Assembly (NCBI GenBank): GCA_028711995.1
Contig: JAQTRE010000002.1
Span: forward strand, 1,704 to 65,703
Length of the DNA: 64,000 nt
Direction of reading: 5' to 3'
Origin: Dehalococcoidia bacterium
GTDB lineage: Bacteria > Chloroflexota > Dehalococcoidia > SZUA-161 > SpSt-899
Shown in pieces: positions 4,903 through 37,455 of this stretch. The notes beneath the pieces are model-generated. The model saw nothing but the letters and a program-made list of their open reading frames with translations, was not told where the DNA came from and searched no databases. Each line of letters begins with the position of its first letter. Position 1 is the stretch's first letter. The position numbers and the translations under genes were made by a program.

Positions 4903-5112
4903 TTAAGGCACCGGGTCTACTCCGCCCTTGGCAAAGGGATTACATCGGACAATGCGCTTGGCGGTCAGCCACCCGCCTTTCAAAAACCCATATCGGCTGA
5001 TCGCTTCATACCCGTACTCCGAGCATGTTGGCTGATAGCGGCAGGCAGGTGGCAATACAGGGGAAATTGCTTTCTTATAGAAGCTGATCAAGGCCAGGGC
5101 AATCTTCTTCAT
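4903..5112 (-). CDS. yidD: Membrane protein insertion efficiency factor YidD
   Basis: 69 aa, ...[26 protein letters not shown]... is the YidD signature, and it lies directly after rnpA. Confidence 0.9.
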
Positions 5113-5460
5113 CTAGTTTCTCACCAGTAGATCGGCTCGATTCATTAGCCCGATCAAGGCTGCCTCTATATCATCATAGCGCGCCCCGGCAGCTCGATTT
5201 CTAGCGATGATCACGATGTCCCAGCCCGGTTGAATCGGATTCAGCCTCACCGCCTCACGCAAGAGCCGTTTTACCCTGTTTCGTAAGACGGCCTTTTTCC
5301 CTACTTTTTTGCTGACAACAAAGCAAAACCGACTGACCTCCAAGCCGTTTGGCATGGCTCTCAGGACCATAAAGTCATTAGCCGAAGCCTTCCCGCACTT
5401 GAAGACTGCATCGATTTGCGAACCCCTGTTAAGCCGTTCCCCTCTTCGCATCTGTGCCAA
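5113..5460 (-). CDS. rnpA: Ribonuclease P protein component
   Basis: 115 aa basic protein (…KKVGKKAVLRNRVKRLLREA…) in the RnpA family, immediately downstream of rpmH. Confidence 0.9.
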   Translation of the reverse strand: MAQMRRGERLNRGSQIDAVFKCGKASANDFMVLRAMPNGLEVSRFCFVVSKKVGKKAVLRNRVKRLLREAVRLNPIQPGWDIVIIARNRAAGARYDDIEAALIGLMNRADLLVRN

Positions 5461-5480
5461 GCGATGTATTCTTGCACAGT

Positions 5481-5618
5481 CTATACAGTCAATTTATGAC
5501 GACCTGCCAGTCGCCTTCGGCTCAAAACTGCTCGCCCGTCCTTTGTGCTCATCCTGTGCAAAAAACCGTGCTTGCGTTTCCTGGGAATTTTCTTTGGTTG
5601 ATAAGTTCTTTTTGGCAT
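5481..5618 (-). CDS. rpmH: 50S ribosomal protein L34 (45 aa). Absent from the ORF track because it is under the size cutoff.
   Basis: Hand translation of the reverse complement gives [45 protein letters not shown] followed by a stop. This is the canonical L34 sequence, in the canonical position ahead of rnpA. Confidence 0.9.
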
Positions 5619-5644
5619 TTCTCTTGTCCTTAAATACGTAGCGT

Positions 5645-5674
5645 ATTATACCCTTATATGAGTTCTCTTGGCAA
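5645..5674 (-). promoter_or_regulatory. Candidate sigma-70 promoter for the rpmH-rnpA-yidD-yidC-jag operon
   Basis: On the minus strand: TTGCCA (-35), 18 nt, TATAAT (-10; the plus strand reads attata at 5645-5650). The -35 lies in the loop of an 8-bp hairpin (gagttctc/gagaactc, 5660-5687) that may also terminate gyrB. Confidence 0.45.
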
Positions 5675-5703
5675 CCAATGAGAACTCAGTTCTTCATCAG
5701 TCT

Positions 5704-7695
<1,992 letters not shown>

Positions 7696-8769: not shown

Positions 8770-10461
8770 CTAAATCCCGGAGGCTTTCTCCGGCTCCGAC
8801 CGTGGAGATGTGGACTCTACACTGATATTCCGCTTCCCCTGCAGGGGGATTTCTTTGAGGAAGACTGTGGCTGCCAATGCAATCAGCGCCACGATTAATC
8901 CTATAAGAAATACCTCGGTGATGGCCGAGGAAAGCGCGTGCCGTAGCGCGTCCACGAGTTGTTGGAACAGCCCTTCGCCTTGGGGGCCCAGCTGGTTGAA
9001 CTGGGAATGAAGTTGCTCCTGAGCTTCAGGACTGACAAGCGCTTGTGGGTTGTGTGCCATTGATGAAAGTTGCCCCTGCTGTAGGGCATCCTTGACACTT
9101 GGTGGGACTGCGTGCGTCAGGTCAGAGGAGAATCGGTTGGTCATCACCGAGCCAAAGACAGCCAGCCCCAGAGTGCCGCCAATAGAGCGAATGAACTGAA
9201 TGGACGATGTGGCCACGCCCATCAGGCGGTAGGGGACCGCGTTCTGAACAGCAATAGTAAAGACGGGCATTGTTATGCCAAGCCCGAATCCCATAAGCGC
9301 AATGTTAAAGATCGTCTGCCCGTGTGTGGTACCTACCGTCATCCGGGAAAGCAAGCCTGTACCAAGCGCCATGACCGTTAACCCCACCAGCGCTTGAGTC
9401 CGATAGTGGCCTCCCATGCGGGAAAGTGCCTGTCCGGAAAGAATACTGCCAGCTACCATTCCCAGCATCATAGGGGTGAGGAAACTACCGCTGCTGGTCG
9501 CCGATGAACCCAGCACCCCCTGGAAAAAGAGCGGGATGAACACAATACCGCCGAACATGCCGAATCCGGTGAGAAAAGTGGCGATCATCGAAATGCCAAT
9601 AATACGGCCCCGAAAGATACTAAGGGGGATAAGGGGCTCAACGGCACGCGACTCCACCCAAAAGAAAAGGCCGGCTGAAATTACTCCAAAGGCTAACGTC
9701 CCGATGATCTGTGCTGAAATCCATGCATATTCCGACCCACCCCAGGAGAGACCCAGTAGAATGGGTACCACCGCCAGCACCAGCGTAATCACGCCCAGAT
9801 AATCAAGGCGCTGTCCGGTGGCTGCCGGTTGCACCTTGGGAAAGAACAGGATAAAGAAAATGATCGCCGGGATACCGACCGGGATGTTGATGAAGAAAAT
9901 CCAGTGCCATGAAAGGTTATCGGTAACAAAGCCTCCGATCATGGGGCCGATCACAGCTGATAGGCCAAAGACCGCAGTGATAATCCCGGAATACTTACCC
10001 CGCTCTGCAGGCGGAAAGAGATCTCCGATAATGATGAAGGAATTGGCCATCATCACTCCAGCACCGATGCCCTGGAAGGCCCGGAAAAGAATGAGCTGGG
10101 TCATCGTCTGGCTGAGCCCTGAGAGAATAGATCCCAGCAGAAAGATGGCAATCCCGACGATGCAAATCCATTTTCTCCCGTAAATATCCGTCAGCTTGCC
10201 TATAATGGGTACTACCGTGGTGGAGGTTACCAAATAGGCTGTGGTCACCCAGGTATAATGGGCGAATCCGCCGAGGTCGGCGATGATACGTGGCATGGCA
10301 GTGCCCACTACTGTCGAGTCCATAGACGACAAAAACATGGCCAGCATCACTGCGGCCATGGTGAGCACTATCTGGCGTCTGGGTAAAGAGTGGAATCCTG
10401 CGGTGTCGCCCCCGTCCCAGCCGTGATCCTTTGTTTCTGTCTGATCCGTTTTCGGCATCAT
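8770..10461 (-). CDS. MFS transporter, DHA2 (EmrB/QacA-like, 14-TMS) drug:H+ antiporter family. The likely start is MMPKTDQ; the track ORF extends to 10530.
   Basis: Hydrophobic multi-TM protein with the MFS motifs (…[11 protein letters not shown]…) and about 14 predicted helices. Confidence 0.8.
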
Positions 10462-11904: not shown

Positions 11905-13338
11905 TCAGGACTCACTCAATTCTTCTCTGCGCCGAATCCACATTGCCGGCACAAGCGCCAGCAGGCACACGATTGCAGCGGCAAGGAAGAAGTTGTGAAA
12001 GAGGTCCAGCACCAGCGGGGGGAGTTTATCCTCAATTTGTTGCAGTGACATCCCGGCTGCCATTACATGAAAATGACCCATTCCCCATGAATTCATCAGC
12101 GCCAGCCCGATGATCATCCCGATCATGCGCATTGATGTCACCAGTGCCGAGGCGACCCCCCGATCTCCCTCACCGACTGAGTTGAGGACAGCAGTGGTGA
12201 TAGGCGCGATGACCAGCCCAAATCCAAGGCCGCACATTACCAGGTGTATCGTGAGCCAGGGTTCAGCCACTGAATCTGTCCACCGCCACAAAAACAAGAA
12301 CCCCCCGGCGCTCAGGAGCAACCCCACAGCCGTGGGAATGCGATATCCCAATCGATGGCACAGAAAACCTCCTATCACCGCTCCGATAGGGATAGCAAAG
12401 GTAAGCCGCCCCAGCCTCAGTCCCAGTCCCACGCCTTCCACTCCCATAAGTGTAGCAGCCATTACGGGAACGATAACAATAGCGATGATAAGCGCGCCAC
12501 CGATGAACAAATGAGTGATGTTAGCCGCAGAGAAGGTGCTATCTCTAAACAGATGAAGTTTGACAAGAGGCTCTGCCGCCCTCTGTTCTCGAAGGATAAA
12601 CAACCCGAAGAGGAAGATGGAAGCTAACAGCAAACCAGCCATATAAAACTCGGCATTTGGACGGTGCAGTTGTTGCGAGAGCCCAATGCTCATGAAAGCA
12701 AGCGCCGCCGCAATCATCAGACCACCCCGGTAATCCACCGATGCCCGGACCTGCTGGCTCGGTTTTACAAAAAAGTATATCAGTGGAATAACTATCAGCC
12801 CCACAGGAACGTTGATCCAGAATATCCAATGCCAATCGAGATATTCGGCAATTACAGAACCATACAGAGGACCGAGCGCTCCTCCCAGTTCCACTGCCCC
12901 GCCGAGAATTCCCAGGGCGATGGCTCTTCTGGCTAGCGGATAGGTATCCCCGATAATAGCCATGCCAACTGGCACTACCGCCCCCCCCCCAATTGCCTGC
13001 ACCACCCGGGCGGCCAGAATATAGTTAAAGCTGGCCATCAATGCAATCAGTACTGAGCCTACCATAAAAACCAGCAGCGAGAGGATGTACATTCGACGAT
13101 GACCGTAGACGTCGGAGATTCGCCCCACCAGAGGCATCGCGAACGTATATCCCAGAAGATAGCCACTGACTAGCCATGACACTTGGTCCAGGCGGGTGAC
13201 ATTCATGTGAAGATCAAACATGATCTCATTGAGAGCGCCGTATATCACTGTCTGGTCAAGGGCAGCAACAAAAATGCCAGCACAAACAGCAAAGAGGATG
13301 AGATTATGGGAAGGGACTCTCGTCTTGGATTCTTCCAT
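11905..13338 (-). CDS. MFS transporter (DHA family; P55-like partner of the upstream LprG-type lipoprotein)
   Basis: 477 aa with 12-14 TM helices and MFS signatures (…GRISDVYGHRRM…). It lies directly downstream, on the minus strand, of the lipoprotein gene at 13380-14087. Confidence 0.8.
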   Translation of the reverse strand: MEESKTRVPSHNLILFAVCAGIFVAALDQTVIYGALNEIMFDLHMNVTRLDQVSWLVSGYLLGYTFAMPLVGRISDVYGHRRMYILSLLVFMVGSVLIALMASFNYILAARVVQAIGGGAVVPVGMAIIGDTYPLARRAIALGILGGAVELGGALGPLYGSVIAEYLDWHWIFWINVPVGLIVIPLIYFFVKPSQQVRASVDYRGGLMIAAALAFMSIGLSQQLHRPNAEFYMAGLLLASIFLFGLFILREQRAAEPLVKLHLFRDSTFSAANITHLFIGGALIIAIVIVPVMAATLMGVEGVGLGLRLGRLTFAIPIGAVIGGFLCHRLGYRIPTAVGLLLSAGGFLFLWRWTDSVAEPWLTIHLVMCGLGFGLVIAPITTAVLNSVGEGDRGVASALVTSMRMIGMIIGLALMNSWGMGHFHVMAAGMSLQQIEDKLPPLVLDLFHNFFLAAAIVCLLALVPAMWIRRREELSES

Positions 13339-13379
13339 AATGGCAGGCTAGAGGCACAGCGTGCGGTTCTTCTTTGGAA

Positions 13380-14087
13380 TCATTCGGGTAACTGGATGGT
13401 GACGGGCTGGTTGAATCTGGAAATGTCCAGTGTCCTGATGATGCCCTCCTTCTCGTCCTCACAAATTCGGCCATCGAAGACAACTTTGCGAAGCAGGAAA
13501 TCCTCGACGCCGATCCAGATATCGGTCCTGACAGGCAATCCTTCAGCAGCATGCCCCACGGCGATGGAATTCAGCGTTTCAGAAAACAGGGTTCCGCTCA
13601 TATGAAAGCATATGACCCCGCCTGACTTTTCGTCCGTCATCATCGAAAGTCCGGTGACGCTTTCCATCACCGCCTTGATGCCAGTACCAGGCTGGAACAG
13701 TGAGACAGCGTTAAAATCTTCCGAAAGAAGTTCCCAACTACTGTTCAGGGGATTGGTCATATAGGTCACCGTGCCGACGGTGATCAGTTCCGCCTCAACG
13801 AACATTCGGCCCCATGTGGCCTCGATCTTCATCTTGAGCTTATCGGGCGGCGCAATATCGCCAGAAGCTCCGGTCATCTCGAGTCCCATATTTATCGGGG
13901 TCCCACCACCTTCCTGGCTTAGAGCAAAATGGAAACTGGTCAGGTTATCCAGTTTGGGCGAGGCCGTAGCGATGATCTCTTCCGGCGTAAGGGAAGAGGC
14001 CGATAGTGTCGGAGTGGAGTCCTCATCCTTTCCGCAAGCGCATACCAAGAGCGCCAACATCAAACCGAAAAGGAGTATTTGTTTCAT
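13380..14087 (-). CDS. Lipoprotein of the LppX/LprAFG (LprG-like) family. The start is taken at MKQILLFGL; the track ORF extends to 14123.
   Basis: Signal peptide plus lipobox (LLVCACGK). The architecture and length resemble mycobacterial LprG/LppX (…TSFHFAL…, …FVEAELITVGTVTYMTNP…, …TDIWIGVEDFLL…). It sits in an operon with an MFS transporter, as in lprG-p55. Confidence 0.5.
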   Translation of the reverse strand: MKQILLFGLMLALLVCACGKDEDSTPTLSASSLTPEEIIATASPKLDNLTSFHFALSQEGGGTPINMGLEMTGASGDIAPPDKLKMKIEATWGRMFVEAELITVGTVTYMTNPLNSSWELLSEDFNAVSLFQPGTGIKAVMESVTGLSMMTDEKSGGVICFHMSGTLFSETLNSIAVGHAAEGLPVRTDIWIGVEDFLLRKVVFDGRICEDEKEGIIRTLDISRFNQPVTIQLPE

Positions 14088-14419
14088 TTGCCTTCCCCCG
14101 TTGCTTTTACTGTTGCTGGTCATGCCGCCGGCTCCTATCGAAGACGAGTCTTTGACTGGAAATCCTTCTTCTAGAAGTCATTGAAGGAGACTCCCTCTTC
14201 TTTCGGCCGATTTTCCCGAGCCCGGCAGAGAACCTCAGAGAATTGGGGCGGTACGCACCCGGCCATTGTTTGTATTATAATCGCCACATCCGCGGAAGTG
14301 AAGGAAACAGGGGCTGTGATATTTCATGGCCGAAGATGAACTAAATCTCTCGTCACAGAGATGCAGTGAAGTGCAGTGCCTGACCAAAGGACGGATGGCT
14401 GTACGGCGCATCCGTTATT

Positions 14420-17347: not shown

Positions 17348-17920
17348 ATGTTAACAACAGCGCAGAACGCCCCCAACGGAAAATACGCCATTGACGATCC
17401 CGAGATCTTCGCGGGAGATATGGAGATATACATTGCTCCGCCTTTTGACAATGCTCATGTAATAAACATCATGAGACAGATGAAGAAGCATAAATGCAGA
17501 TTTCAATACTCCAGCGGCTCGCACCGGGATGGTTGCTTGATCGCCGTTTATCTCGATGAGCCACAAGCCATGGTCAGTATTCTAGCCGATACCCCTGGCA
17601 TCAACGATGTCCGGATAACTCCGGTACTGGAATCTAAATTCGAACAGTCTCACGGGCAATCCCGGCAGTTGCTTATGTCTGGAAGAATGAATGTTCATCG
17701 GATAACGGTCACTGTGGAACCCCGCAAGGTAAGGGCCGTGGAAGGCGGGCGAGAAGGCATCGCCGACGGCCAAAATGTGAAGAGCCCCGCTCACAAGGCC
17801 AACGAGACAGGCATCTTTAATCCGGAAAGATCAACGGATAGTTACTCTCGACGTGTCACCTTTGATGCCCGAGGAGGAGCGTTCGGGGCAAGGGCGAATG
17901 CGATACCACGCATCGTTTAG
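17348..17920 (+). CDS. Hypothetical protein (190 aa) directly upstream of pilT
   Basis: A good RBS (aaggaga) precedes the ATG at 17348. There is no recognisable domain, and the C-terminal half is Arg/Gly-rich and of low complexity. Confidence 0.4.
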   Translation: MLTTAQNAPNGKYAIDDPEIFAGDMEIYIAPPFDNAHVINIMRQMKKHKCRFQYSSGSHRDGCLIAVYLDEPQAMVSILADTPGINDVRITPVLESKFEQSHGQSRQLLMSGRMNVHRITVTVEPRKVRAVEGGREGIADGQNVKSPAHKANETGIFNPERSTDSYSRRVTFDARGGAFGARANAIPRIV

Positions 17921-17967
17921 TGAAGCAGTGTTTGGCTTTTTCAATTCTGTTTCTCAGGGAGGGAAAA

Positions 17968-19059
17968 ATGGAAATCAATGAACTACTGCGTTTGGCGGAT
18001 CAGAAGAATGCCTCAGACCTTCACCTCATGGTCGGAGTCCGTCCGGCGCTGAGGGTCGACGGACAGTTGATAAATATTCAATGTGAGCCGATTACTCCTG
18101 CTGAGCTGATACAGGCTTTCAATTCGGTGACAGATGAGAATCAGCAGAGCACATTCTCTCGCGATTTGGAGCTGGATTTTGCCTATACTGTCCCACATGG
18201 ATCTCGCTTCCGGGCTAATGCTTGCCGGCAGAAGGGAACCATCAGCCTCGTCTTCCGACACCTAGAGTCACCCCCAATCAACATCGAGGCTATCGGTTTG
18301 CCCCTGGTCTGCAGGGACCTGGCCCTCAAACCGAATGGATTGGTGTTGGTAACCGGACCCTCGGGATGCGGCAAATCGACCACGTTAGCAGCAATGATAC
18401 AGCACTTGAATCAAACCAGGGAACGACGAGTTATCACCATTGAGGACCCCATCGAGTATGTTTACGCCAGCGATCGGTGCATGATCTCGCAGCGAGAGGT
18501 GGGATCTGACACCCATTCGTTCGCTCAGGCGCTGAAGCATGTGCTTCGGCAGGACCCGGAAGTCATTCTGGTTGGGGAAATGCGAGATGTTGATACGGCG
18601 ATGATGGTGCTGACGGCCGCGGAGACCGGCCAATTGGTGTTGTCCACGGGGCATGCTTCCAATGCTCCCAGTTCAATTGACAGGATAATTGATCTGTTTC
18701 CCCCGAATCAGCAGATCTTCGCCCAGGCAAGACTGGCCGAGGTGCTTCAAGGAGTATTATCCCAGAGATTGCTGGCTCGTGTGGATGGATCAGGACGAGT
18801 TCCCGCAGTGGAGGTCATGCTGGGAAACCCGGCGGTGAAGAGCCTCATTCGGGAAGGCAAGATACACCAACTAGCCAACGTTATCCGCACCGGTCAGCAA
18901 TTGGGTATGCGGTCTATGGATGAATCTCTGATACACCTTTACGATGCAGGGCTGATAAGCAGAGAGGCGGTATTGACGTACTGTGTGGATTACGGCGAAA
19001 CAGTAAGAATCGTTGGTGAGCCATTGACATCTGGTGTTACCGGGCGATTGCAGCTTTAA
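17968..19059 (+). CDS. pilT: Type IV pilus retraction ATPase PilT. The start is taken at MEINELLRL; the track ORF begins at 17920.
   Basis: Walker A GPTGSGKST-type (here GPSGCGKST), Asp box, Walker B, His box (LVLSTGHA) and the PilT-specific region are all present. An RBS (agggagg) precedes 17968. Confidence 0.85.
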   Translation: MEINELLRLADQKNASDLHLMVGVRPALRVDGQLINIQCEPITPAELIQAFNSVTDENQQSTFSRDLELDFAYTVPHGSRFRANACRQKGTISLVFRHLESPPINIEAIGLPLVCRDLALKPNGLVLVTGPSGCGKSTTLAAMIQHLNQTRERRVITIEDPIEYVYASDRCMISQREVGSDTHSFAQALKHVLRQDPEVILVGEMRDVDTAMMVLTAAETGQLVLSTGHASNAPSSIDRIIDLFPPNQQIFAQARLAEVLQGVLSQRLLARVDGSGRVPAVEVMLGNPAVKSLIREGKIHQLANVIRTGQQLGMRSMDESLIHLYDAGLISREAVLTYCVDYGETVRIVGEPLTSGVTGRLQL

Positions 19060-19086: not shown

Positions 19087-22000
19087 TTAGGCCATCGGGC
19101 TTTGCTGTTCTCCCATAACCCTGAAAAACACGCCAATGATGGCGGGATCAAACTGGCTTCCGCTGCATCTTTGCAATTCGGCCATCGCTTCTGTGTGCGA
19201 CATCACATCAGCATAGGATCGGGCAGAGGTCAGGGTATCGTAAGTATCAGCTACGGAGATGATCCTGGCACGGATTGGAATCTCTATGCTCTTCAACCGG
19301 CCCGGATATCCGCTGCCATCATACCATTCATGATGGTGGCGGATATCCGGCACAATGTCCGCCAGGTCTTTGACGTGTTCCACAATCTTCGCTCCCTCGG
19401 CAGAGTGCCTTGTGAGGAGCGCCCACTCTTCTTCCGTAGGTTTTCCCGGTTTGCTCAGGATCGCATCAGAGACGCCGAATTTACCGATATCGTGCAGGAT
19501 GGCGGCAGAGTGCAACTTTACCAGGTCCATCTGAGTCAACCCCATCGCCTTGCCAATCCTTTCACACAGACCTGCTACCCTTGTAGCATGACCATACATT
19601 TCTTTGTCCCTGGCATCTACTGCGGCGGCCAGAGCATAAATCTGGTCCAGCGTCGCCAAGCCCAAGACTCCCGAAGCTGCCAGCTCGTCCAGATCGGACA
19701 CCCGCGTGGTGGTAGCCCCCCCGCGTCGCTTTGACTGATAAAGAGCGATATCAACCAGATTCATCAGGCTGTCTATGGTATCTCCATCATCGGGGAAGTC
19801 AACTATCCCTGCACTGATCTGCAAAAGCATCTCTGAGGAAGGAAAACTGGACTTGACTCTCTCCTCCCATTTTTGTCTGATGCGCCTAGCAATCTTGTCT
19901 GCTTTTTTAACATGAGTTGAGCGCACCAGCAGGATGAACTCGTCGCCGCCGTAGCGAAAAACCATGTCATTGTTCTTAAGAGAAGTTTCCAGCAGTCGGG
20001 CGAACTCTTGAAGGACCTTATCGCCATTTGTGTGCCCGTAAGTGTCATTGTACAGCTTGAATCGATCGAGGTCGAGCATTACCAGCGAGAATGAACTGCC
20101 GTCTGCAAGGGCTCGGTTGATCTCCGTTTCGACCACATCGTAGAAACGGCGGCGATTCGGAACGCCGGTCAACTCATCGGTTACACTCAGGCGACGTAAT
20201 TCTTCCTCGGCCTGTCTACGCTCCGTGACGTCACGAATGACAGCAAGGTACGTCACTGCCTTTCCCTCGCTGAAAATTGGAGAATGGGTCACCTCGCCAA
20301 ATCGTACGGCTCCGTCTTTGGAGATGAATTTATAGGTTGGATTGGGAAGCGTCTCACCTGCGAAGATGTGATCTAGATTGTGATGCAGTTCCTGCAATGA
20401 ATCCTCTGCGATGACGCCTATCTCCAGCCATCTCTTTCCCATCAGTTCCGCGAGGACATATCCGCCAAGCCTCTCAGCCGAGGGCGAAACGTCAATAAGC
20501 CTGAGTTCCTGGTCAAACTCAGCGATGACATCGGATACATTCTCGAAATGGAGCCGGTATCGCTCCTCACTATGACGCAGCGCTTCTTCTGCAACCAGCC
20601 GGGCAATACCTTCCCCCACATGTCCTGTGATCTGCTCGAGTGCAATACGAGCGTGGACGGAAAATCTTTCTTCAGTGTGAGAAGTTACGTGGAGGCAGGC
20701 GACCAACCGGCCCTCATGAACAATCGGAAGTATTGCAATGGCCCGCAGACCCTCCATCTGCTCTGCTTCTTTTGAAGGTATGTTAACCTTCGAGAACTCA
20801 GTATACAGTGGCACCGCGTTCATCACCAGACGGGTATTGGGGGAATCGGGGCCATAGTATGAAACAGAATCAATGAAATCGGCTGATAATCCGTGGTGAC
20901 ATACCAGCCTTATTCCCCCTGTATCTTCATCAACGAGGTAGATGCCTCCCGAGTCCATTCCGGAGGCGGCGATGGCCGCCTCAAGGCACAGGGCGGCGCC
21001 CTTATCGAGTTCGTCGGTAGCAGATAAGGATTGAGCCAGATTCTGCTGAATGGCGGACTGTTTCTCTGCCCGTTTTCGGTCGGTGATGTCCGAGGTCAAA
21101 CCATAGAAATACCGTTTGCCGTCTTGCTCATAGGAATTAACGGCTCTGGTATATAACCATAGCCATTCCCCGTCCTTTCGCCTGAACCTGTGCTCGATAG
21201 CAAAGTAAATCCCTTCCTCATCGAGGGCCCTCAAAGCAATTTTCACATTGTTGAGGTCATCAGGGTGAACGTTTCCCAGCCAACCACGGATTCCTCCCTG
21301 ACGCAGTTCTTCCGGCGCACATCCCATGATTGCCTGCACATTGGGGCTAACGAAAGCGATCCCCTTTCCCTGCTCGACTATCCACACGGTATCCGGAATG
21401 TTGTTCACCACAGTACGGTATTTCTCTTCACTCTCGCGGAGCGCCCTTTCCGCTTGCCTTCGCTCCGTTACATCTCGCACCACAGAGGTATACGCTGTAA
21501 TCTTTCCTTCCACAATAAGGGGGGTATTGGTTACCTCGCCAAGTTTAATCGTTCCGTTCTTGCAGATGAACCTGTAGGTACGAGGCGGCATCGCTTCGCC
21601 GGGAAGGAAGTGGTTCAGGTTGAAAACGATCTCCTGCGCTGATTTCTCTGAGATGATGCCAACATCGACCGCCTTCCTGCCGATCAACTCGGATGGTGTA
21701 TATCCCAGCATCGTTTCGATTGACGGTGAGACATCGAGAATGCGAATCTCTGTGTCAAAGCTGACGATGATGTCGGACGCATTCTGAAAGTGGAGCCGAT
21801 ATCGCTCTTCGCTCGCGGCGAGCGCTTTCCAGGCTCGCGTCTTCTCCAAAGCATTGCCTATGATGTCGGCGGATAGCTGGAGCAGGGCTCTGTCATCCTC
21901 TTTCCACTTTCCGGCTGTGGAAACATTGTCAAAACCGATGAGCCCTGCCCACCGGTTTGCCATAAACAGAGGAACAATGATGAGTGATTTGATTTCCTGG

Positions 22001-23517
22001 CTCTCCAGAAGCAATCGGAGATTTCTCTCCCGGGTATTCTCAAGGGAAAGCATGGAAACATCTGGAATGTGCATCCCCTCTCCGGAGCGCATCTTGTCCA
22101 CACCTTCGAATTTATTGCAGGGTATTCCTTGCAGATTACTTATCTGGGGAGATACTCCCTCGGCGCACCACTCGTGGGTGTTGTCGATGATATTGCTATC
22201 TTCTCGCAACAGAAACAGATAAGCTCGATGGGCTCCGCTCAGCACAGCCATATCCTGCAGTGCCTCTTTGATGGCGCTGTCAATATCGTCATTCCCCACA
22301 AATCGAGCAGAGATGATGGCTATGGTCTTCTCGAACTCCAGCCGGCGGTTTATATTCTCCTGTGCGCGCTTACGTTCGGCGATTTCCACAGTTAATTTGT
22401 CGCGCGAAACGGTTGTTGTCCTGAGTGTCTCAGCCATCCGGTCAAACGAACGGGAGAGATCGCCGAGTTCATCCCTGTCCTTCGCGTTCATCCGGTAATC
22501 CAGATTGCCCCGGCTGATCTCCTCTGCTCCCTGCGAAAGACGACGGACCGGTAAGGTAATAGTACGGCTGAAAAACAGGGCCAGGAATATCACCCCCAGC
22601 GCCATACCGGCACCGATGATCAAAATTATGTTCCGTAAATTGCGGACCGGTGTAAATGCTTCGGCTTGATCTACCTCTGTCTGAATGTATAACTTCCACT
22701 CCGGTATCCATTGACCGGCTCCAATGACCGGCACGCCCCGGTAGTTATGGTACAGGCCGTGGAAAGCAATGGGTCCGCCCGGATTGGGGGGCGCTTCCCT
22801 GTTCACGGCCAGAACGGCTTGGTCCTGAACATTTCCCTTACCAAATTCCGGGACGGTGACAAACTGATAGGATTCATCAATCAGGCATGTGTTCTGGGTT
22901 TGCTTTGAATCGGCCCCTCTGGCCAGAATGTCGGAGGACAGCTCCTGTATATCGACGCGACCTGCAAGCACAGCGACAAGGTTGCCTTGATTGTCTTTGA
23001 CGGGCATTCCGATAACAATGGCGGAGGTTGACGACGGAGGAGACTGGCAGCAGACAGTCTGGACATACATCCCTTGCTTACCTTCCTCAAAAAAAGGCTC
23101 CCCCACCCCGTATTGTCCCTCTCTGGCCTCATTCGAGGAGACAAACACCAGTCCATCGCTGGCTCTGAGGAGAAACATTTCGTCCAAACCGACCCCTTCA
23201 ATTGCCGCCGCGAAGAGACGATCAACGATACCCTGACGGGCTTCCCGGTATGCTGGGTCCGTCCGGTCAAGTGATCCCATCGCTTTCAATTTCTCCAACA
23301 TGTAGGAATGGGCAGACAGTATATCGACCGCAGTCTCATTAGAATTCATCCAGCCTGTGAACTGTGTAGCCTTGTAGGCGTTGATTGAGATGAGGTTTTC
23401 CAGCGTGTCATCTTCGATGGTTTTCCGGCCATGGTCATAAGCCACGTAACCAACAATGATCACCGGGATGAGAGAAAGAAGGAGGAAAATCAGGATTAAC
23501 TTGGTGGCTAGTTTCAT
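19087..23517 (-). CDS. Multidomain c-di-GMP signalling protein (1476 aa): TM, periplasmic dCache-like sensor, TM, HAMP, GAF, PAS x2, GAF, PAS, GGDEF, HD-GYP
   Basis: An N-terminal TM helix, an extracytoplasmic region of about 260 aa and a second TM helix are followed by …RYGGDEFILL… (GGDEF) and a C-terminal …ILHDIGK…HHEWYDGSGYP… (HD-GYP). Several PAS and GAF signatures are visible between them. Confidence 0.85.
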   Translation of the reverse strand: MKLATKLILIFLLLSLIPVIIVGYVAYDHGRKTIEDDTLENLISINAYKATQFTGWMNSNETAVDILSAHSYMLEKLKAMGSLDRTDPAYREARQGIVDRLFAAAIEGVGLDEMFLLRASDGLVFVSSNEAREGQYGVGEPFFEEGKQGMYVQTVCCQSPPSSTSAIVIGMPVKDNQGNLVAVLAGRVDIQELSSDILARGADSKQTQNTCLIDESYQFVTVPEFGKGNVQDQAVLAVNREAPPNPGGPIAFHGLYHNYRGVPVIGAGQWIPEWKLYIQTEVDQAEAFTPVRNLRNIILIIGAGMALGVIFLALFFSRTITLPVRRLSQGAEEISRGNLDYRMNAKDRDELGDLSRSFDRMAETLRTTTVSRDKLTVEIAERKRAQENINRRLEFEKTIAIISARFVGNDDIDSAIKEALQDMAVLSGAHRAYLFLLREDSNIIDNTHEWCAEGVSPQISNLQGIPCNKFEGVDKMRSGEGMHIPDVSMLSLENTRERNLRLLLESQEIKSLIIVPLFMANRWAGLIGFDNVSTAGKWKEDDRALLQLSADIIGNALEKTRAWKALAASEERYRLHFQNASDIIVSFDTEIRILDVSPSIETMLGYTPSELIGRKAVDVGIISEKSAQEIVFNLNHFLPGEAMPPRTYRFICKNGTIKLGEVTNTPLIVEGKITAYTSVVRDVTERRQAERALRESEEKYRTVVNNIPDTVWIVEQGKGIAFVSPNVQAIMGCAPEELRQGGIRGWLGNVHPDDLNNVKIALRALDEEGIYFAIEHRFRRKDGEWLWLYTRAVNSYEQDGKRYFYGLTSDITDRKRAEKQSAIQQNLAQSLSATDELDKGAALCLEAAIAASGMDSGGIYLVDEDTGGIRLVCHHGLSADFIDSVSYYGPDSPNTRLVMNAVPLYTEFSKVNIPSKEAEQMEGLRAIAILPIVHEGRLVACLHVTSHTEERFSVHARIALEQITGHVGEGIARLVAEEALRHSEERYRLHFENVSDVIAEFDQELRLIDVSPSAERLGGYVLAELMGKRWLEIGVIAEDSLQELHHNLDHIFAGETLPNPTYKFISKDGAVRFGEVTHSPIFSEGKAVTYLAVIRDVTERRQAEEELRRLSVTDELTGVPNRRRFYDVVETEINRALADGSSFSLVMLDLDRFKLYNDTYGHTNGDKVLQEFARLLETSLKNNDMVFRYGGDEFILLVRSTHVKKADKIARRIRQKWEERVKSSFPSSEMLLQISAGIVDFPDDGDTIDSLMNLVDIALYQSKRRGGATTTRVSDLDELAASGVLGLATLDQIYALAAAVDARDKEMYGHATRVAGLCERIGKAMGLTQMDLVKLHSAAILHDIGKFGVSDAILSKPGKPTEEEWALLTRHSAEGAKIVEHVKDLADIVPDIRHHHEWYDGSGYPGRLKSIEIPIRARIISVADTYDTLTSARSYADVMSHTEAMAELQRCSGSQFDPAIIGVFFRVMGEQQSPMA

Positions 23518-24125
23518 CGTTTCCTCGGGTCGTAATCGGGAAAGGGTGAAATATCAGACATGCACTGTATACTCGACAATTTAGCCTTTTGATCTCCTGT
23601 TGTCAAGAGAGTCATTTTTTCCTTAATCCTTGGAGTATCGACCCTCTGCGGATCAGGTTGACGCAAAACAGAGAAATGCCTGGAAGATGATACTGCCTGG
23701 CTAAATTATAACCCTCCAACGCTTGTCTCGAAAATGAGTCGGCAGTAACAAATATCAAACCGTGTAAGTTTCCTGTTGATTATGTTTAACCATAAGGAAA
23801 ATTTGGGGGTAACCATCACAGAAAAATCAGTGTTCTCACCGTTTCGTATAGACGGGGTCTTGGTGTATTCTGCGTGTAACGTGTAAATGGGCCAACTCCG
23901 TCGAAGCTACAGCACCCTCGTGGCGGGTAGCGATGATGCTGTTGATTTTGCGAAGGCATCCTGAGCCGTGTATTTAGTAGGAACCTTCCGGGGTTAGCCC
24001 CATATATGGAGAATTCATGTGGCAACGGTTGAAAGCAGCAAGCTTTTTCCCCGAATCCGAGCCATGGTTTCCTGGAAAGTTGCTGCAAGAAGAGAACTGA
24101 ACATGACAGAAAGGAATTAGGCCAG

Positions 24126-24413
24126 ATGCATCTAGCGATTCAATTACTGATTCAATTAACGATACTTATAGTTGCCATTGTCATAGCCAGTTTGATTTTG
24201 CGCTGGATGACGAGCAATCCCGAAAAGCTCAAAGCCATATGGAGGCGCACTAAGAGATTTTGGGTAACACCCTTGATATACCTAAGGGCATTTCGAGCCT
24301 ATGTTAACTGGAAAAGGGTGGGGATGGGTTTCAGCCTTCGGGATTGTATGTGCCAGGAATGGGAGAAATATGATAAGGAACATTATCCCGATCAACCCTA
24401 CTATCGACTGTGA
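24126..24413 (+). CDS. Small hypothetical membrane protein (95 aa) in the 1-kb divergent promoter region. Speculative.
   Basis: One N-terminal TM helix and a weak RBS (aggaa), with no family match. Confidence 0.25.
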   Translation: MHLAIQLLIQLTILIVAIVIASLILRWMTSNPEKLKAIWRRTKRFWVTPLIYLRAFRAYVNWKRVGMGFSLRDCMCQEWEKYDKEHYPDQPYYRL

Positions 24414-24544
24414 AGAATAGTGAACTTGTAGCTGTTGTGTGATGGGAATAGAAGCATCAATGGAAACAAAGTTGGTACAAAAACGAAGGGCCGCTTCTGA
24501 GCAGTTTGGGTGATCTTCCATGAAGTTACCATAGGAGGAATTAA

Positions 24545-26164
24545 GTGAAAATGGTGGATAAGGTAGGCATGATAAAACTCAGTTTTCAATGGAAGCTGCT
24601 GTCTGTGGGATTGATGAGCATGGTTGCATTTGTGGTATTGTTGCTGGTCGGCGCCGTTCCCGACACAGCTAAGACCACTCTTATGACCATTGGCGGTGCT
24701 TTGGCTGCTGTGTCTCTGATTGCTCTGGTTATTCTCTCGCAATATGCGGGCAAGAATATTAAAGAGTTGGCCAAAACTGCCGATAGGATCAGCCATGGAG
24801 AGTTGGGTTTCAACATTGATCTCAAGTCCAAGGATGAAATAGGAGACCTAGCCACCTCACTGCGGAGTGCCGCCGTATATTTCAAGGAGTTGGCTTCCAC
24901 GGCTGAGAAGGTGGAGGCAGGGGATCTATCTCTGTCATTCACGGCGAAATCCGAGAGAGACGTCCTCGGTAATGCCTTTGCAAACCTGACCAAGTGCTTC
25001 AAAGACATCATCGGCAAAGTGGCCGGTGATGCCAAAGAGATGGATTTAGCTAGTGACCAACTCGCCGCATCGGCCACTCAGGCAGATTCCGCAACGCAAC
25101 AGGTTGCCAGCACCAGTCAGCAGATGGCGAAAGGTGCCAGCGATCAGGCCGCGAGTTGTCAGGAAACAGCCAAGGCGGTAGGTCAATTGACTGAAGTTGT
25201 TGCCCAGATTGCCAAGGGCGCTCAGGAACAGGCCGAGGGAGTCCATAAAGCGACTTCATCCATAGCGGAACTGTCCTCCGGGGCAGATCAGGTAGCGAAG
25301 AATGCCCTTGCTGCTGCCGGGGGATCCAAAGCAGCAACGGAGGCTGCCAACAAGGGTGCGGAACAGGCCAAACAGGCAGTCGAAGGGATGAAACGAGTCA
25401 GAAACAGTGTGGAAGCAGCCTCGCAGAAGGTTTCCGATCTGGGGCAGAAGTCCGAGGCGATCGGCAAAATTGTAGCGGTGATCGATGATATTGCCGCCCA
25501 GACCAATCTTCTGGCGCTGAATGCCGCCATCGAGGCGGCTCGGGCCGGAGAACATGGGCGGGGATTTGCGGTTGTGTCCGATGAAGTCAGGAAGCTGGCA
25601 GAGCGGACGGCCCAGGCCACCAAGGAGATTGCCGATCTCATCAGCAACGTGCAAAAGGGTGTGGGAGAGGCAGTGAAAGCGATGCAAGAGGGGACCAATG
25701 AGGTGAACGGAGGGTACAAACTGACCAGCGAGGCGGGCGAATCTCTGGAAGATATTCTGAAAGCGTCGACGGAAGTCAGTGTGCAAATCGAACAGATATC
25801 GGCTGCGGCCCAGCAGATGAGCGCCTCTGCCAATGAGATGGTAACCATCATCGATAGTGTTGGGAGCGTTACGGAAGAGAACACGGCAGCGGCCGAAGAG
25901 ATGTCCGCGAATGCGCAGCAGGTGAGCAATTTGATCGAAACAGTCGCCGGGGTGGCAGAGGAGAACAGCGCCGCAACCCAGCAGGTGTCGGCTTCCGCCG
26001 AAGAGATGAGTGCTCAGATGCAGGAAGTGGTGGCCTCATCCCAGTCGCTGAAGCAAATGGCTGAAGCGTTCATGATATTGATGTCCCTTTTCGGGAGCAC
26101 TGATGATGAGGGCGACTCACAGGAGACCGAACCTGAGCGTGACAAAGTGCTGGTTGGAGCCTAA
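24545..26164 (+). CDS. Methyl-accepting chemotaxis protein (539 aa: two TM helices with a minimal loop, HAMP, MA signalling domain)
   Basis: The highly conserved MCP signature …[39 protein letters not shown]… is present. Confidence 0.9.
25050..26075 (+). repeat. Paralogous repeat: the MCP1 signalling-domain coding DNA is highly similar to 27625-28655 in MCP2
   Basis: Long stretches are near-identical by eye. For example, 25441-25640 versus 28020-28220 differ only by scattered third-position changes, as do 25790-26070 versus 28370-28650. Confidence 0.8.
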
Positions 26165-26266
26165 GAGAAAGTGCGGAGGGGAGAGGATTGGGGAATGACT
26201 ATGAGTCAGGAGATTGTCCTTACTGCTTATTGCCATTGACCCCAGTATCACCCAAAAGGAGGGCAG

Positions 26267-28741
26267 GTGGGAAAGTTAATTAATCTGAAATGGCGGCCGA
26301 AATTGGGCGCTAAGCTGCAAAGGTTGACAACGCTTAACCTCGGACCGAAGTTGCTTATCGGTTTCCTGGTGGTTGTAGCCATGACCGGGGCTACGGGTTT
26401 TATCGGCATGCGGGGGATTTCTGGTGTAGCTGATGCTTCGCAAAGTGCCGATGAGGCCAATCTGACCGTGCAAAAGGTGCTGGAAATCAGGCAAGCGGAA
26501 AGGGAGTATGTGCAAACTGGGGATGATCGCTATCTTGTCCGGATTGATGCCATATTGGCTGACGCGAAGAATCTCATCGCAACGATGAAGGAATCGTCTG
26601 GAGGAGAGAACCTCGCCCTTCTCAATGTAATGGAGGCCCAGTTTGATAGCTACAGGCAATCAAAAGATGCCTATGCTGGTCTTATGAGCGCAGGAGCTGC
26701 GAAGCAACTTCAAATGGAAGAGGTGTCTGTTGCCGCCCAAAACGAGGTCAAAGATATGACAGGACAGCTGGAAGCACGGGCGCTTAGCGATGTTACCACG
26801 CTGTCAGTCTTCGTGGAGGGATCGTACGACACCAGTTCAATGGACGCTTCCGGAAAACTCAGCGTGCTAAACAGTGCTAACCGCCTCATGCGAAACATCC
26901 AGTATCTCAGAATGGCCGAGAAAGACTATCTGCTTAGCCATGATAAGAACTATTCTGATGAGTTCATGGTGCAGATATGGACTGCGCAGAGTGTGGTGAA
27001 CTATGATCTCGAGGCGAGCGTTGGCGATCTGATCGATCGGGCGCAAGCAGATGCGATCTTAAAGTCTCTGGATGCATATCAAGCTGCATTTGAGGCATAC
27101 GTCGATTTAGATCAGCAGAAAGAGGCTCAACTCTTGGTGATGATAGAAGCCGGAAATGTATTGATCGGCAGTCCGGATAAAGATAGCCAATACTACGGCG
27201 GGGCAGAATTACTGAAGGCAAAGGCTCAAGACGACTCCGAATCTGCCAAGAGTCTAGCCATCATGATGACATTGGCCTTCATAGGCGGCTCGATAATGAT
27301 AGGTATTGTTCTTGCCATCGTCATTTCCCGCTCAATCACCAAAAAGGTCCGGTTGATAGCGGAGAGGGCGGATGAATTTGCCACCGATCTCGAGGGGCTA
27401 TACGGCACCATGCAATCAGCTGCCCAGGGAGATCTCTCCGAGAAAGTTCGGATCAACACACAGGAGATGCCTATAACCTCGCGTGACGAAATCGGCGTTA
27501 CCATGACGTCTCTGAATAGAATGATTGCCAATTTGCACAACACTGGCGATGCCTTCGAAAACATGATGGTCAATCTGCGAGACTTGATTGCCAAGGTAAC
27601 GGACAACTCGACACAGTTGAATGCAGCCAGCGATCAACTTGCTGCATCGTCAACGCAGGTAGGTTCTGCCACCCAACAGGTGGCCAGCACCAGCCAGCAG
27701 ATGGCCACCGGAGCCAGCGATCAGGCTGCAGCCTGCCAGGAAACGGCCAAGGCAGTAGGGCAACTGACCGAGGTTGTCGCACAGATAGCAAATAGCGCTC
27801 AAAAGCAATCGCAGGGAGTTCAGGCGGCAATCACTTCGATCACCGAGTTGTCAACCGGAGCGGAGCAAGTGGCAAGCAGTGCCGCTTTTGCCGCCAGGAC
27901 GGCAAAAGGTGCGGCCGAAGGAGCGCAGAAATTCACGGAGACGTCAAAGCAGGGGGGAGATCGGATGAAACTGATCATGACCGCGGTCGAAACAGCCTCG
28001 CAGAAGGTTTCCGAACTGGGACAGAAGTCCGAGGCGATCGGCAAGATTGTGGCCGTGATCGATGATATCGCCGCCCAAACCAATCTACTGGCGTTAAATG
28101 CAGCCATCGAGGCGGCGCGGGCAGGAGAACATGGTCGGGGATTTGCGGTGGTATCTGATGAAGTAAGAAAACTGGCAGAGCGGACAGCCCAGGCTACCAA
28201 GGAGATTGCCGAGCTGATCAGCTATGCGCAAAGGGGTGTGGCAGAGGCAGTAAAGGCGATGGAAGAAGGCCGGAAAGAGATGAAGGGTAACTATAAAGGG
28301 ATCGCCGAATCCAAAGCATCCCTTCAGACTGTCCTGAATGCAAACTCGGAGCTTGGTGTGCAGATCGAACAGATATCGGCCGCGGCCCAGCAGATGAGCG
28401 CCTCTGCCAATGAAATGGTAACCATCATCGATAGTGTGGGGAAGGTTACGAAAGAGAATACCGCGGCGGCCGAAGAGATGTCGGCCAATGCTCAGCAGGT
28501 GAGCAATCTGATCGAAACAGTTGCCGGAGTGGCTGAGGAGAACAGTGCCGCGACCCAGGAAGTATCGGCTTCCGCCGAAGAGATGAGCGCCCAAATGCAG
28601 GAAGTGGTAGCGTCATCCCAATCACTGAAGCTAATGGCTGAGGAACTCCTGACGAAGGTCTCCGTTTTCAAAACGGGCGGCAACAGATATAGCGATCAGG
28701 GAAATGAGCTTGATCGTGAGAAGGTGTTGGTTAATAGCTAA
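26267..28741 (+). CDS. Methyl-accepting chemotaxis protein (824 aa: ~290-aa periplasmic helical sensor domain, TM, HAMP, MA domain)
   Basis: It has the same MCP signature, and its cytoplasmic domain is near-identical to the upstream MCP. Confidence 0.9.
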
Positions 28742-28859
28742 AGATGATGTGAAGGAAGAGGGACTAAGGAAAAACTCTTTCCCCCCAACTGGGCAGAAAC
28801 TTTGTGATAGCCAATAGAGCGGTGAGTTGACCGGGTGAAACAAGTGGAGGGCAATTGAT

Positions 28860-29363
28860 ATGAGCAGCGATGCAGGGAAGAAGCAGGCTGAGAGACAACT
28901 GGTGATCTTCAGCCTGGCCAATGAATCCTACGGGGTGGATATCGGCACGGTGAATGAAATCATCCGCATACAGGAGATATCAAGGGTGCCCAGAACTCCG
29001 GCATACGTGCAGGGAGTGATCAATCTCAGGGGCAGGGTTATCCCGGTGGTTGACTTGCACAAGGTTTTCGATTTTGCCGACAGAGAGACAACAAAAGAGA
29101 GCCGCATTATCGTGGTGGATATTCTGGAACAACAAGTGGGCATAATGGTTGACGCGGTGACGGAGGTGTTACGCATCTCTGCCGATTCTGTCGAGCCTCC
29201 CTCGTCGATGATTGCTACGGGTGATTCGGATTATCTGCTGGGGATAGCCAAAGTCGGACAGAGGCTGATCACTCTTTTGGACCTGGCAAAGGTGTTCACA
29301 AGAGATCAGGCTGAGAAGCTTGAAGAAGTGGAACTTGCTGCGATCGGCGCCGCCGCAGGGTGA
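28860..29363 (+). CDS. cheW: Chemotaxis coupling protein CheW
   Basis: 167 aa with a CheW-like fold (…FSLANESYGVDIGTVNEIIRI…VINLRGRVIPVVDL…). Confidence 0.9.
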   Translation: MSSDAGKKQAERQLVIFSLANESYGVDIGTVNEIIRIQEISRVPRTPAYVQGVINLRGRVIPVVDLHKVFDFADRETTKESRIIVVDILEQQVGIMVDAVTEVLRISADSVEPPSSMIATGDSDYLLGIAKVGQRLITLLDLAKVFTRDQAEKLEEVELAAIGAAAG

Positions 29364-29543
29364 AACGGCTACGCAGAATTCTAGAGGCCATGCATTGAGA
29401 GAAAGGGGCCTATCTGGTTATCGATAACCATCGATAAGGAAGGAACCCTGAGAATTGCCGAAAAACCGGTCACTGGATTATTGATCGGCTTGAAGCAATG
29501 GTGAATCGTAATCCCTCACTATCGCTTTGTGAGGAGGCTGGGA

Positions 29544-29933: not shown

Positions 29934-29965
29934 CCGGCCGCCTGCTGGCTGATCTAGGAGCAGAA

Positions 29966-32675: not shown

Positions 32676-32745
32676 CAACGAGAAAAGGCAAGACAGAAGA
32701 CCTGGTAGATATTGATTATGCGCGAACACAGGCACTAATAGGAGG

Positions 32746-33881: not shown

Positions 33882-33908
33882 GCCCGAAGAAGGAAACAAG
33901 GAGAATAA

Positions 33909-34268: not shown

Positions 34269-34391
34269 GAAACCTGTGATTAAGTGGTGCAGAACACCTC
34301 CTGCCGGGAATCCGGGGGTGCCCAACACTTGATGGCGCTTGCCTAGGGAAGCGCCATCAACACACAGGAATTCTGAAGAAAGGAACCTGCC

Positions 34392-35471: not shown

Positions 35472-35474
35472 ACT

Positions 35475-36311: not shown

Positions 36312-36334
36312 TGGCTCAATAAGGGGAAAATATC

Positions 36335-37435: not shown

Positions 37436-37455
37436 TTGTGGAGCGACATTAAGCG

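Follow-up and report, generated by a model that had tools for sequence, protein, structure and literature searches.

An lprG-mfs gene pair in a Dehalococcoidia genome as a probable counterpart of the mycobacterial LprG-Rv1410 system

A two-gene lprG-mfs module carried by a Dehalococcoidia (Chloroflexota) MAG is probably, at about three chances in four, the equivalent in Chloroflexota of the LprG-Rv1410 (P55) system of mycobacteria. The module lies within the 64,000-nt stretch of DNA that was analysed (the window) and consists of a gene for an LprG-like lipoprotein followed by a gene for an MFS transporter. The genes themselves are ordinary and had been annotated before. Both proteins are already deposited in NCBI, the lipoprotein being identical to MDD5092885.1 and the MFS transporter to MDD5092884.1, and the yield for the window is a sound functional annotation, not a discovery. 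In M. tuberculosis, LprG-Rv1410 is a determinant of both virulence and drug tolerance, and discussion of its function turns almost entirely on the mycomembrane (TAG, LAM).

Both open reading frames are located on the minus strand, the lipoprotein gene (235 aa) at 13380..14087 and the MFS gene (477 aa) at 11905..13338, in agreement with the first-pass annotation, which had placed a lipobox protein at 13380-14087 with an MFS transporter next to it on the same strand. The lipoprotein gene is upstream and the MFS gene directly downstream. The two are separated by a spacer of 41 nt from the lipoprotein stop to the MFS start (13339..13379, minus strand), and the arrangement is a predicted operon. 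Neither a terminator-like hairpin nor a strong Shine-Dalgarno sequence ahead of the MFS gene was found in this spacer. A consensus scan of the 332 nt that precede the lipoprotein gene detected a promoter-like site, TTCACT-17 nt-TATAAT (14274..14302, minus strand; 10/12 matches). This is no more than a pattern match, and such sites are not more numerous there than expected from shuffled sequence.

The closest known systems are LprG (Rv1411c)-Rv1410c/P55 of M. tuberculosis and MHAS2167/MHAS2168 of M. hassiacum (8PNL; LprG 3MH8, 3MHA, 4ZRA). LprG-Rv1410c and the window pair have the same layout, with the lipoprotein first, the MFS second, one strand and a short spacer. The host differs, being a member of Chloroflexota (Dehalococcoidia) and not of Actinomycetota, and the lipoprotein is only ~19%, the MFS 33-36%, identical to its mycobacterial counterpart. 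If the hint of phylogenetic affinity drawn earlier from the pair was meant to point to Actinobacteria, it was wrong, as the MAG is from Dehalococcoidia.

By domain match, motif and model, the lipoprotein is a predicted member of the LppX_LprAFG family with an LprG-like fold and a lipobox, and these features (PF07161, lipobox and LprG fold) are the ones it has in common with LprG. PF07161 (LppX_LprAFG) matched at 52.2 bits (cutoff 24; E 8.8e-14) over profile positions 2-191 of 192. Since this match is above the cutoff, the family membership proposed in the first-pass annotation, which hung on such a match, holds. As profile scores, this match and that of PF07690 to the MFS (185 bits) are far above chance, and PF07161 is present in all 88 lipoprotein homologues. 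The protein begins with MKQILLFGLMLALLVCAC followed by GK, and an alternative in-frame ATG is located at 14123. A signal peptide with a lipobox (LVCA-C18) was read from the sequence at 14034..14087 (minus strand); in the context MKQILLFGLMLALLVCA-C18, the motif L-V-C-A-C puts the predicted lipidated cysteine at C18. All of the 21 closest homologues have this cysteine, and in a set of 52 its conservation is 90% or more. The signal peptide is followed by a low-confidence linker of ~17 residues, residues 16-29 having pLDDT <50 in the AF2 model.

The AF2 model of the lipoprotein (pLDDT 84.9) was compared with PDB structures by Foldseek. The nine best folds were those of LprG, LprF and LppX (E 3e-13 to 8e-11), with TMt of 0.78-0.80 for LprG, 0.74 for LprF (E 2.9e-12) and 0.73 for LppX (E 7.9e-11). 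LppX, LprF and LprA have the same Pfam family and fold as the window lipoprotein, but the lipoprotein family profile favours LprG (E 1.3e-13, 54 bits) over LprF (3e-6, 30 bits) and LppX (1.6e-4, 25 bits). To our knowledge, these paralogues are not encoded beside Rv1410-type MFS. As a single sequence, the lipoprotein is ~19% identical to LprG with an E of only 0.0086. In an alignment that is approximate at 19% identity, residues L69, M71, I88, W92, V97, W118 and F125 fall at the LprG pocket/entrance positions L71, L73, V91, L95, I100, F123 and Y130 respectively, so that the aligned pocket/entrance positions are mostly hydrophobic, but two of them are polar in the lipoprotein (N112 and D124). 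For LprG itself, pocket volumes of 900-1400 Å3 have been measured.

The MFS is predicted to be a DHA2 transporter of the Rv1410 type: it shares with Rv1410 the candidate residues for proton coupling (D28; E150-R404) and also has a periplasmic extension of TM11 and TM12. Among proteins of solved structure it scores highest against MHAS2168 (8PNL), a homologue of Rv1410, at 233 bits, the next being EfpA at 111. The model of the MFS (pLDDT 86, pTM 0.87) contains 14 long helices, and the segments 203-220 and 229-253 between TM6 and TM7 correspond to the DHA2 linker helices TMA/TMB. Foldseek matched this model to 8PNL with a TM of 0.86 at 33% identity. EfpA, EmrB and QacA also have the 14-helix DHA2 fold (TM 0.82-0.84) and the general D/R/Q/N motifs, but their sequence scores against the window MFS are about half of that of 8PNL. 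A fragment of 8PNL scored 177-239 bits against the 12 LprG-linked MFS and no higher than 123 against any other, and in a neighbour-joining (NJ) tree the clade of 8PNL contains exactly these 12. The analogy with lprG-P55 drawn in the first-pass annotation is thus supported: MHAS2168 is the closest relative of the transporter by both sequence and fold, the E-R ion lock is present, the transporter falls in the 8PNL clade, and the lipoprotein has an LprG-like fold with a profile preference for LprG over LprF and LppX. For the transporter, judging from sequence and model, the analogy can be raised to orthology.

The residues D28, R111, Q114, E150, N176 and R404 of the window MFS align with D35, R118, Q121, E157, N184 and R426 of MHAS2168. 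All of them except N176 are invariant in 56 homologues. D28 (codon 13255..13257, minus strand), the candidate proton-coupling carboxylate in TM1 with R111, Q114 and N176 as partners, corresponds to D22 of Rv1410. The predicted ion lock is formed by E150 in TM5 (codon 12889..12891, minus strand; E147 in Rv1410) and R404 in TM11 (codon 12127..12129, minus strand; R417 in Rv1410). The motif-A Asp is D76 (D70 in Mtb). The window MFS thus has in common with Rv1410/MHAS2168 the 14-helix DHA2 architecture, D(TM1), R/Q(TM4), N(TM6), the motif-A Asp, the E(TM5)-R(TM11) ion lock and a TM11-TM12 periplasmic helical extension of ~31 residues. Of these, D28, R111, Q114, N176 and D76 are not Rv1410-specific, as paralogues share them. 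The ion lock is conserved in 17 mycobacterial homologues and missing from 46 other characterised MFS transporters (PMC10576003). Its Glu was present in every examined LprG-linked MFS covering that position, whereas Gly occupies the position in the unpartnered DHA2 paralogues (79 loci) and in the second MFS of the window (8770-10455), which is of the EmrB-like type. In the aligned sequences of the loci examined, presence of the ion-lock Glu coincides without exception with presence of the lipoprotein partner.

The predicted TM11-TM12 extension comprises residues 416-446 (31 aa, NSWGMGHFHVMAAGMSLQQIEDKLPPLVLDL; 12001..12093, minus strand) and is built from the model helices 390-427 and 432-465, with a moderate confidence (pLDDT ~63-65). 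Extensions of 31-38 residues have been described in mycobacterial homologues (PMC10576003), and the window MFS is at the low end of this range. The extension carries W418, F423 and H424, with F447 adjoining it, and the positions conserved in it among 56 homologues are G419, M420, F423, H424 and L444. Unlike MHAS2168, the window MFS lacks the TM9-TM10 β-hairpin: the loop has 9 residues (RWTDSVAEP), no strands in the model and a 10-residue gap against 8PNL. The chain of 477 aa is ~65 residues shorter than the 543-residue 8PNL chain. The TM9-TM10 loop is equally short in all non-mycobacterial relatives compared. The β-hairpin was described as a feature of MHAS2168, and its necessity was not demonstrated there (PMC10576003).

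Conservation of the pair was followed in other genomes, using a metagenome scan for lipoprotein loci built from the 21 closest sequences. At loci found by the lipoprotein alone, an MFS gene lies directly downstream in 11 of 12 informative cases. At those found by the MFS alone, a PF07161 gene lies directly upstream in all four, two of which are from spore-forming Bacillota. Both searches together give a retained pair in 15 of the 16 informative loci, and the flanking genes vary between lineages while the pair stays. As far as gene order tells, the lipoprotein and MFS genes have stayed neighbours across the Chloroflexota and in some Bacillota; some PF07161 homologues lack an MFS neighbour. A genome scan with the MFS returned 79 loci, mostly actinobacterial and of ~30% identity, which served as a negative control. 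They were rejected as orthologues because they carry Gly at the ion-lock position and no LprG-like ORF was found in them by an iterated HMM from the lipoprotein family, a search that very distant relatives may escape. The pairing had been called rarely noted outside Actinobacteria. This stands for the literature searched (LprG in Chloroflexi/Firmicutes, LppX_LprAFG), where no non-actinobacterial lprG-mfs pair was found described, a weak evidence of absence given its incomplete coverage. It does not stand for sequence data, in which the pair is common in Chloroflexota and occurs also in spore-forming Bacillota.

Dehalococcoidia are not known to possess a mycomembrane or to make PIM or LAM. Therefore, the mycobacterial substrates and destination are not simply transferable; they may well differ in this host, and the substrate here need not be TAG, PIM or LAM. 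The steps of the proposed mechanism follow by homology from the mycobacterial system (PMC10576003; PMC4709180). The proton-driven MFS would pull a very hydrophobic lipid or glycolipid, probably one with several acyl chains, out of the cytoplasmic membrane and into the cavity at its centre. The lipid would then be let out at the outer face along the TM11-TM12 extension and enter the hydrophobic pocket of the LprG-like lipoprotein, which would be tethered to the membrane and pass it on to the envelope or the cell surface. In mycobacteria, too, a stable complex of LprG with Rv1410 has yet to be demonstrated (PMC10576003).

The same two-protein machine could work in the other direction, in uptake or retrieval of exogenous or surface lipids or in release control and not in export, which we consider unlikely. 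A monoderm would offer no obvious outer-membrane destination. In MD simulations TAG moves both ways between the transporter and LprG (PMC10576003), and an M. abscessus preprint, in which loss of lprg-mfs raises surface and secreted LAM, suggested an inverted transport direction. However, Rv1410 belongs to the DHA2 (drug:H+ antiporter-2) subclass and a likely TAG:H+ antiporter is favoured by the authors of the structural work (PMC10576003). Overexpression of the M. tuberculosis locus led to more TAG in the culture medium (PMC4709180). The sequence itself contains nothing indicating the direction of transport.

An alternative in which the MFS would be one more generic DHA2 multidrug/H+ antiporter, with a functionally unrelated lipoprotein as neighbour, is very unlikely. 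In NCBIfam the MFS comes nearest to the EmrB/DHA2 subfamily, at 207 bits and so short of the cutoff of 230, and many drug pumps are among the matches; homologues of it carry the JGI name 'EmrB/QacA subfamily drug resistance transporter', and Rv1410 itself was originally described as a drug pump. Such a pump would not account for a pairing retained at 15 of 16 informative loci despite varying flanks, nor for an E-R ion lock that is missing from 46 characterised MFS (PMC10576003) and here tracks the lipoprotein partner. Rv1410 conferred no drug resistance in L. lactis, and the EmrB-like MFS of the window behaves differently in the same tests.

A role of the lipoprotein as a LolA- or RseB-like chaperone or sensor, in lipoprotein handling or envelope-stress signalling to an anti-sigma factor and not as the lipid acceptor of the MFS, is very unlikely: LprG has been proposed as a lipoprotein carrier in the literature, RseB and MucB are among the weaker Foldseek matches, and two distant PF07161 homologues (P0080 and P0085, 39-42% identity) lie directly after ECF sigma and zf-HC2/RskA anti-sigma genes without an MFS, but no sigma or anti-sigma gene adjoins the window lipoprotein gene, the protein falls in the MFS-linked group, and the LprG, LprF and LppX folds match far more strongly than RseB (E 1e-13 vs 1e-4; TM 0.8 vs 0.4). 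LolA/LolB and RseB/MucB have a distantly similar half-barrel fold for hydrophobic ligands, with a weak fold match to the window lipoprotein (TM 0.3-0.45, E > 1e-6) and no sequence-level match.

Read as an LprG-Rv1410 counterpart, the module is conserved both in Dehalococcoidia and in spore-forming Bacillota, its ion lock and TM11-TM12 extension intact. This suggests that the combination of lipoprotein and transporter is not bound to a mycobacterial envelope and that the core hand-off is envelope-independent. A broader proposal is made tentatively, with slightly more doubt than belief. Rather than having arisen as an adaptation to the outer membrane of mycobacteria, the LprG-Rv1410 module may be an older lipid hand-off device of several Terrabacteria phyla (Actinomycetota, Chloroflexota, Bacillota), and in the single-membrane Dehalococcoidia it may bring to the cell surface a lipid or glycolipid of a non-mycobacterial kind. 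If this is true, the mycobacterial TAG/LAM role would be a later specialisation, and simpler systems could reveal the core mechanism and the native substrate class. The homologues also provide natural variants for testing which features are essential, for example the TM9-TM10 β-hairpin, which none of these non-mycobacterial proteins has. The ion-lock Glu could serve as a simple sequence marker to tell Rv1410-type lipid transporters from generic 'EmrB/QacA drug resistance' annotations.

Two observations concern the genes around the pair. A functional link to the upstream polyprenyl synthase was considered and rejected, the MetRS-pps synteny being confined to the sub-lineage of the window; seven loci (L087, L096, L097 and L100-L103) have neighbours other than MetRS-pps. 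In relatives, a 409-aa gene is present upstream of lprG, a remnant of which was sought in the window and not found. Its product matches nothing significantly in Pfam, NCBIfam or the PDB, the top PDB hit being a lectin (E 0.006 over 29 residues).

Both genes of the pair were found on the minus strand at the positions assigned by the first-pass annotation. The lipoprotein gene runs from 14087 to 13380 and encodes 235 aa; an alternative in-frame ATG at 14123 would give 12 residues more, and the 235-aa form is the NCBI-deposited version and similar in length to most homologues. Its TGA stop codon is followed by a 41-nt spacer, in which no terminator-like hairpin was found, and then by the gene for the 477-aa MFS transporter (13338→11905, minus strand). 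Upstream, a gap of 332 nt separates the lipoprotein gene from a polyprenyl synthase gene and holds a single promoter-like site, TTCACT-17-TATAAT (14302-14274, minus strand). Downstream, a phosphofructokinase gene lies convergent to the MFS gene, 26 nt apart. Given this upstream gap with its promoter-like site, the hairpin-free spacer and the convergent downstream gene, the transcription unit looks like exactly these two genes.

Closest relatives carry an additional gene of ~375-435 aa between polyprenyl synthase and lprG (L001:2066-3187, L084:3772-5001, L089:3859-4983 and L090:3883-4989). The L084 copy overlaps the lprG start and itself carries a lipobox, LSTGC. Pfam and NCBIfam gave no match for this gene and no PDB hit reached significance, and no remnant of it was detectable by tblastn in the 332-nt gap of the window (14088-14419).

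The lipoprotein begins with MKQILLFGLMLALLVCAC-GK, a signal peptide with a terminal lipobox, and the predicted lipidated cysteine, C18, does not vary among the 21 nearest homologues and is at least 90% conserved in a set of 52. Its suggested membership of PF07161 held in a profile search, which scored 52.2 bits (gathering score 24) with the whole profile covered. LprG of M. tuberculosis was barely detected by a single-sequence search (E 0.0086); a profile built from 52 members of the family matched it at E 1.3e-13 over nearly its entire length, with LprF (3e-6) and LppX (1.6e-4) ranked behind. The AlphaFold2 model built from the family alignment has a mean pLDDT of 84.9, with residues 16-29 as a disordered tether. 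The top nine PDB structures matched by this model each represent LprG, LprF or LppX, at E-values of 3e-13 to 8e-11 and with a TM on target of 0.73-0.80. As a proxy for the cavity, the pocket and entrance residues V91, L95, I100, L71, L73, F123 and Y130, named in the paper on the complex of LprG with TAG (PMC4709180), were mapped through the weak single-sequence alignment onto I88, W92, V97, L69, M71, W118 and F125, respectively; by the same alignment, LprG L115 and I129 correspond to polar N112 and D124. Such residues would fit a hydrophobic pocket but do not prove one.

The likeness of the transporter to P55 proposed earlier was borne out. Its best match among PDB sequences is 8PNL, the structure of the M. 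hassiacum homologue MHAS2168 (233 bits, E 5.5e-68), and the runner-up, EfpA, scores half of that (111 bits). 8PNL is also the best structural match of the AF2 model (pLDDT 86, pTM 0.87; TM 0.86, 33% identity). As 8PNL ranks best both by sequence and by model, the MFS is more than a generic neighbour of the lipoprotein gene. The features that distinguish Rv1410-type transporters have been listed (PMC10576003), and the DHA2 topology with two linker helices is common to the window MFS (14 helices in the model). MHAS2168 D35 (TM1), R118 and Q121 (TM4) and N184 (TM6) correspond to D28, R111, Q114 and N176, and the Rv1410 motif-A Asp D70 to D76. An ion lock between Glu on TM5 and Arg on TM11 is reported to be conserved across 17 mycobacterial homologues and missing in 46 further MFS transporters that have been characterised (PMC10576003); it is E157/R426 in MHAS2168 and E150/R404 here, both invariant across 56 MFS homologues. 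The TM11-TM12 periplasmic extension, 31-38 residues long in mycobacterial homologues (PMC10576003), is likewise present in the model (helices 390-427 and 432-465); it is predicted at residues ~416-446 (31 aa; 12001-12093, minus strand) with a pLDDT of only 63-65, and G419, M420, F423, H424 and L444 are conserved. It is 3 residues shorter than in four aligned relatives (SLQQI---EDKL vs SLQDIMDTPQKL), which places the window MFS at the low end of the mycobacterial range. Unlike MHAS2168, the window MFS lacks the TM9-TM10 β-hairpin; the loop has 9 residues and is equally short in all relatives.

Conservation of the pair was followed from either gene. Among 14 metagenome loci retrieved by the lipoprotein alone, the MFS lies directly downstream in 11, two stop at a contig edge and one is without it; in all four long contigs picked via MFS homologues (51-54% identity), a PF07161 gene lies directly upstream. 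Two of these four, L100 (in a MAG labelled Firmicutes) and L101 (a contig of 3.25 Mb), carry SpoVAD and SpoVAC genes close by and are therefore spore-forming Bacillota. The pair is flanked by MetRS-polyprenyl synthase in the sub-lineage of the window, by acyl-CoA dehydrogenase/ETF in L087, by Band_7/DEAD helicase in the Bacillota loci and by still others elsewhere. Only the pair stays constant while its flanks differ, a pattern characteristic of a functional two-gene unit. The window pair is a well-supported lprG-mfs module, and the module, which keeps both ion lock and extension, occurs at least in Chloroflexota and Bacillota besides Actinomycetota. This wide spread is of moderate interest to researchers of the mycobacterial envelope; for the window itself, the result is a correct, routine annotation. 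The operon has been described as conserved 'in' or 'across' mycobacteria, and no mention of the module in this phylum was found in the literature searched.

The analyses showed homology, fold, conserved coupling residues and a conserved adjacency of the pair. By analogy with the mycobacterial LprG-Rv1410 system (PMC10576003, PMC4709180), the MFS would use the proton gradient (D28; E150-R404) to draw a highly hydrophobic lipid out of the membrane core and into its cavity; the LprG-like lipoprotein would receive the lipid at the outer face, by way of the TM11-TM12 extension, and hand it onward to the cell surface. A Chloroflexota lprG-mfs lipid export pair is the probable overall reading (about 0.75). 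Dehalococcoidia are not known to have a mycomembrane, PIM or LAM. It is unlikely that the pair transports in the reverse direction or in a regulatory one, and quite improbable that the MFS is a plain drug pump and the lipoprotein an unrelated neighbour.

When genomes were scanned with the MFS, a single Dehalococcoidia locus (L001) was obtained, together with 79 loci at ~30% identity, most of them actinobacterial. In none of the 79 was an LprG-like ORF detectable within 4 kb, and in all 79 the residue corresponding to E150 is Gly. The window holds an internal negative control, a second DHA2 transporter (8770-10455, minus strand) that is 29% identical to the first and ~1.4 kb away, with the pfk gene between; EmrB is its best match (150 bits, 8PNL reaching just 117), it passes TIGR00711 (266 bits, cutoff 230), and it has Gly at the ion-lock position. 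Glu occupies this position in every PF07161-adjoining MFS that covers it. In a reverse search with an 8PNL fragment, the 12 LprG-linked MFS scored 177-239 bits and all others at most 123, and the smallest neighbour-joining clade with 8PNL and the window MFS contains exactly these 12. By these sequence comparisons, the mycobacterial protein is nearer to the LprG-linked MFS of Chloroflexota and Bacillota than to the remaining actinobacterial DHA2 pumps in the sample, and the window MFS and the mycobacterial Rv1410-type MFS are therefore taken as orthologues.

An RseB- or LolA-like role of the window lipoprotein is very improbable: LolA and RseB folds follow the nine best matches of its model after a clear drop (E > 1e-6, TM 0.3-0.45). 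The pairing has exceptions. More distant PF07161 proteins (39-42% identity) lie directly after ECF sigma and zf-HC2/RskA anti-sigma genes, with no MFS (L081:3498-5726, L082:3233-5576, L083:3075-5418). Because of this adjacency, and since the weaker of the window model's fold matches include RseB and MucB, the distant branch may partner an anti-sigma factor in the manner of RseB. In a close sub-lineage (P0023; L084, L085 and L093, ~5001-5867) the lipoprotein is 61% identical and no MFS lies downstream. These loci share MetRS-pps-p409 synteny, and the gene that converges on the lipoprotein gene encodes a large PAS sensor; with this gene in its place, the MFS appears absent or lost at the position downstream of lprG. 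Two of these bacterial contigs also have, a few kb away from lprG, a gene whose product contains an archaeal-type flagellin domain (PF01917; L084:1-232, L085:1-232).

The lipoprotein and the MFS are identical to MDD5092885.1 ('LppX_LprAFG lipoprotein') and MDD5092884.1 ('MFS transporter'), both encoded on the same 90-kb contig in a MAG of Dehalococcoidia; the nearest genome-scan locus (L001) is also from Dehalococcoidia. An actinobacterial affinity of the organism, if meant by the first-pass annotation, is wrong. As the identical NCBI entry is so named, the family assignment of the lipoprotein is already public; the specific link of the MFS to Rv1410 does not appear in the NCBI names.

Elsewhere in the window, a PilT-like T2SSE ATPase gene (17920-19059, plus strand) adjoins the gene for a 1476-aa multi-sensor protein with Cache-HAMP-GAF-PAS-GGDEF-HD-GYP type domains (19087-23517, minus strand). 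Chemotaxis genes on the plus strand (MCPs at 24545-26164 and 26267-28741, CheA at 30546-32675) are notable for a Dehalococcoidia MAG. They coincide with a region at ~24000-40000 (plus strand) in which GC skew (0.12-0.20) and AT skew stay positive throughout, an effect likely caused by the co-oriented genes.
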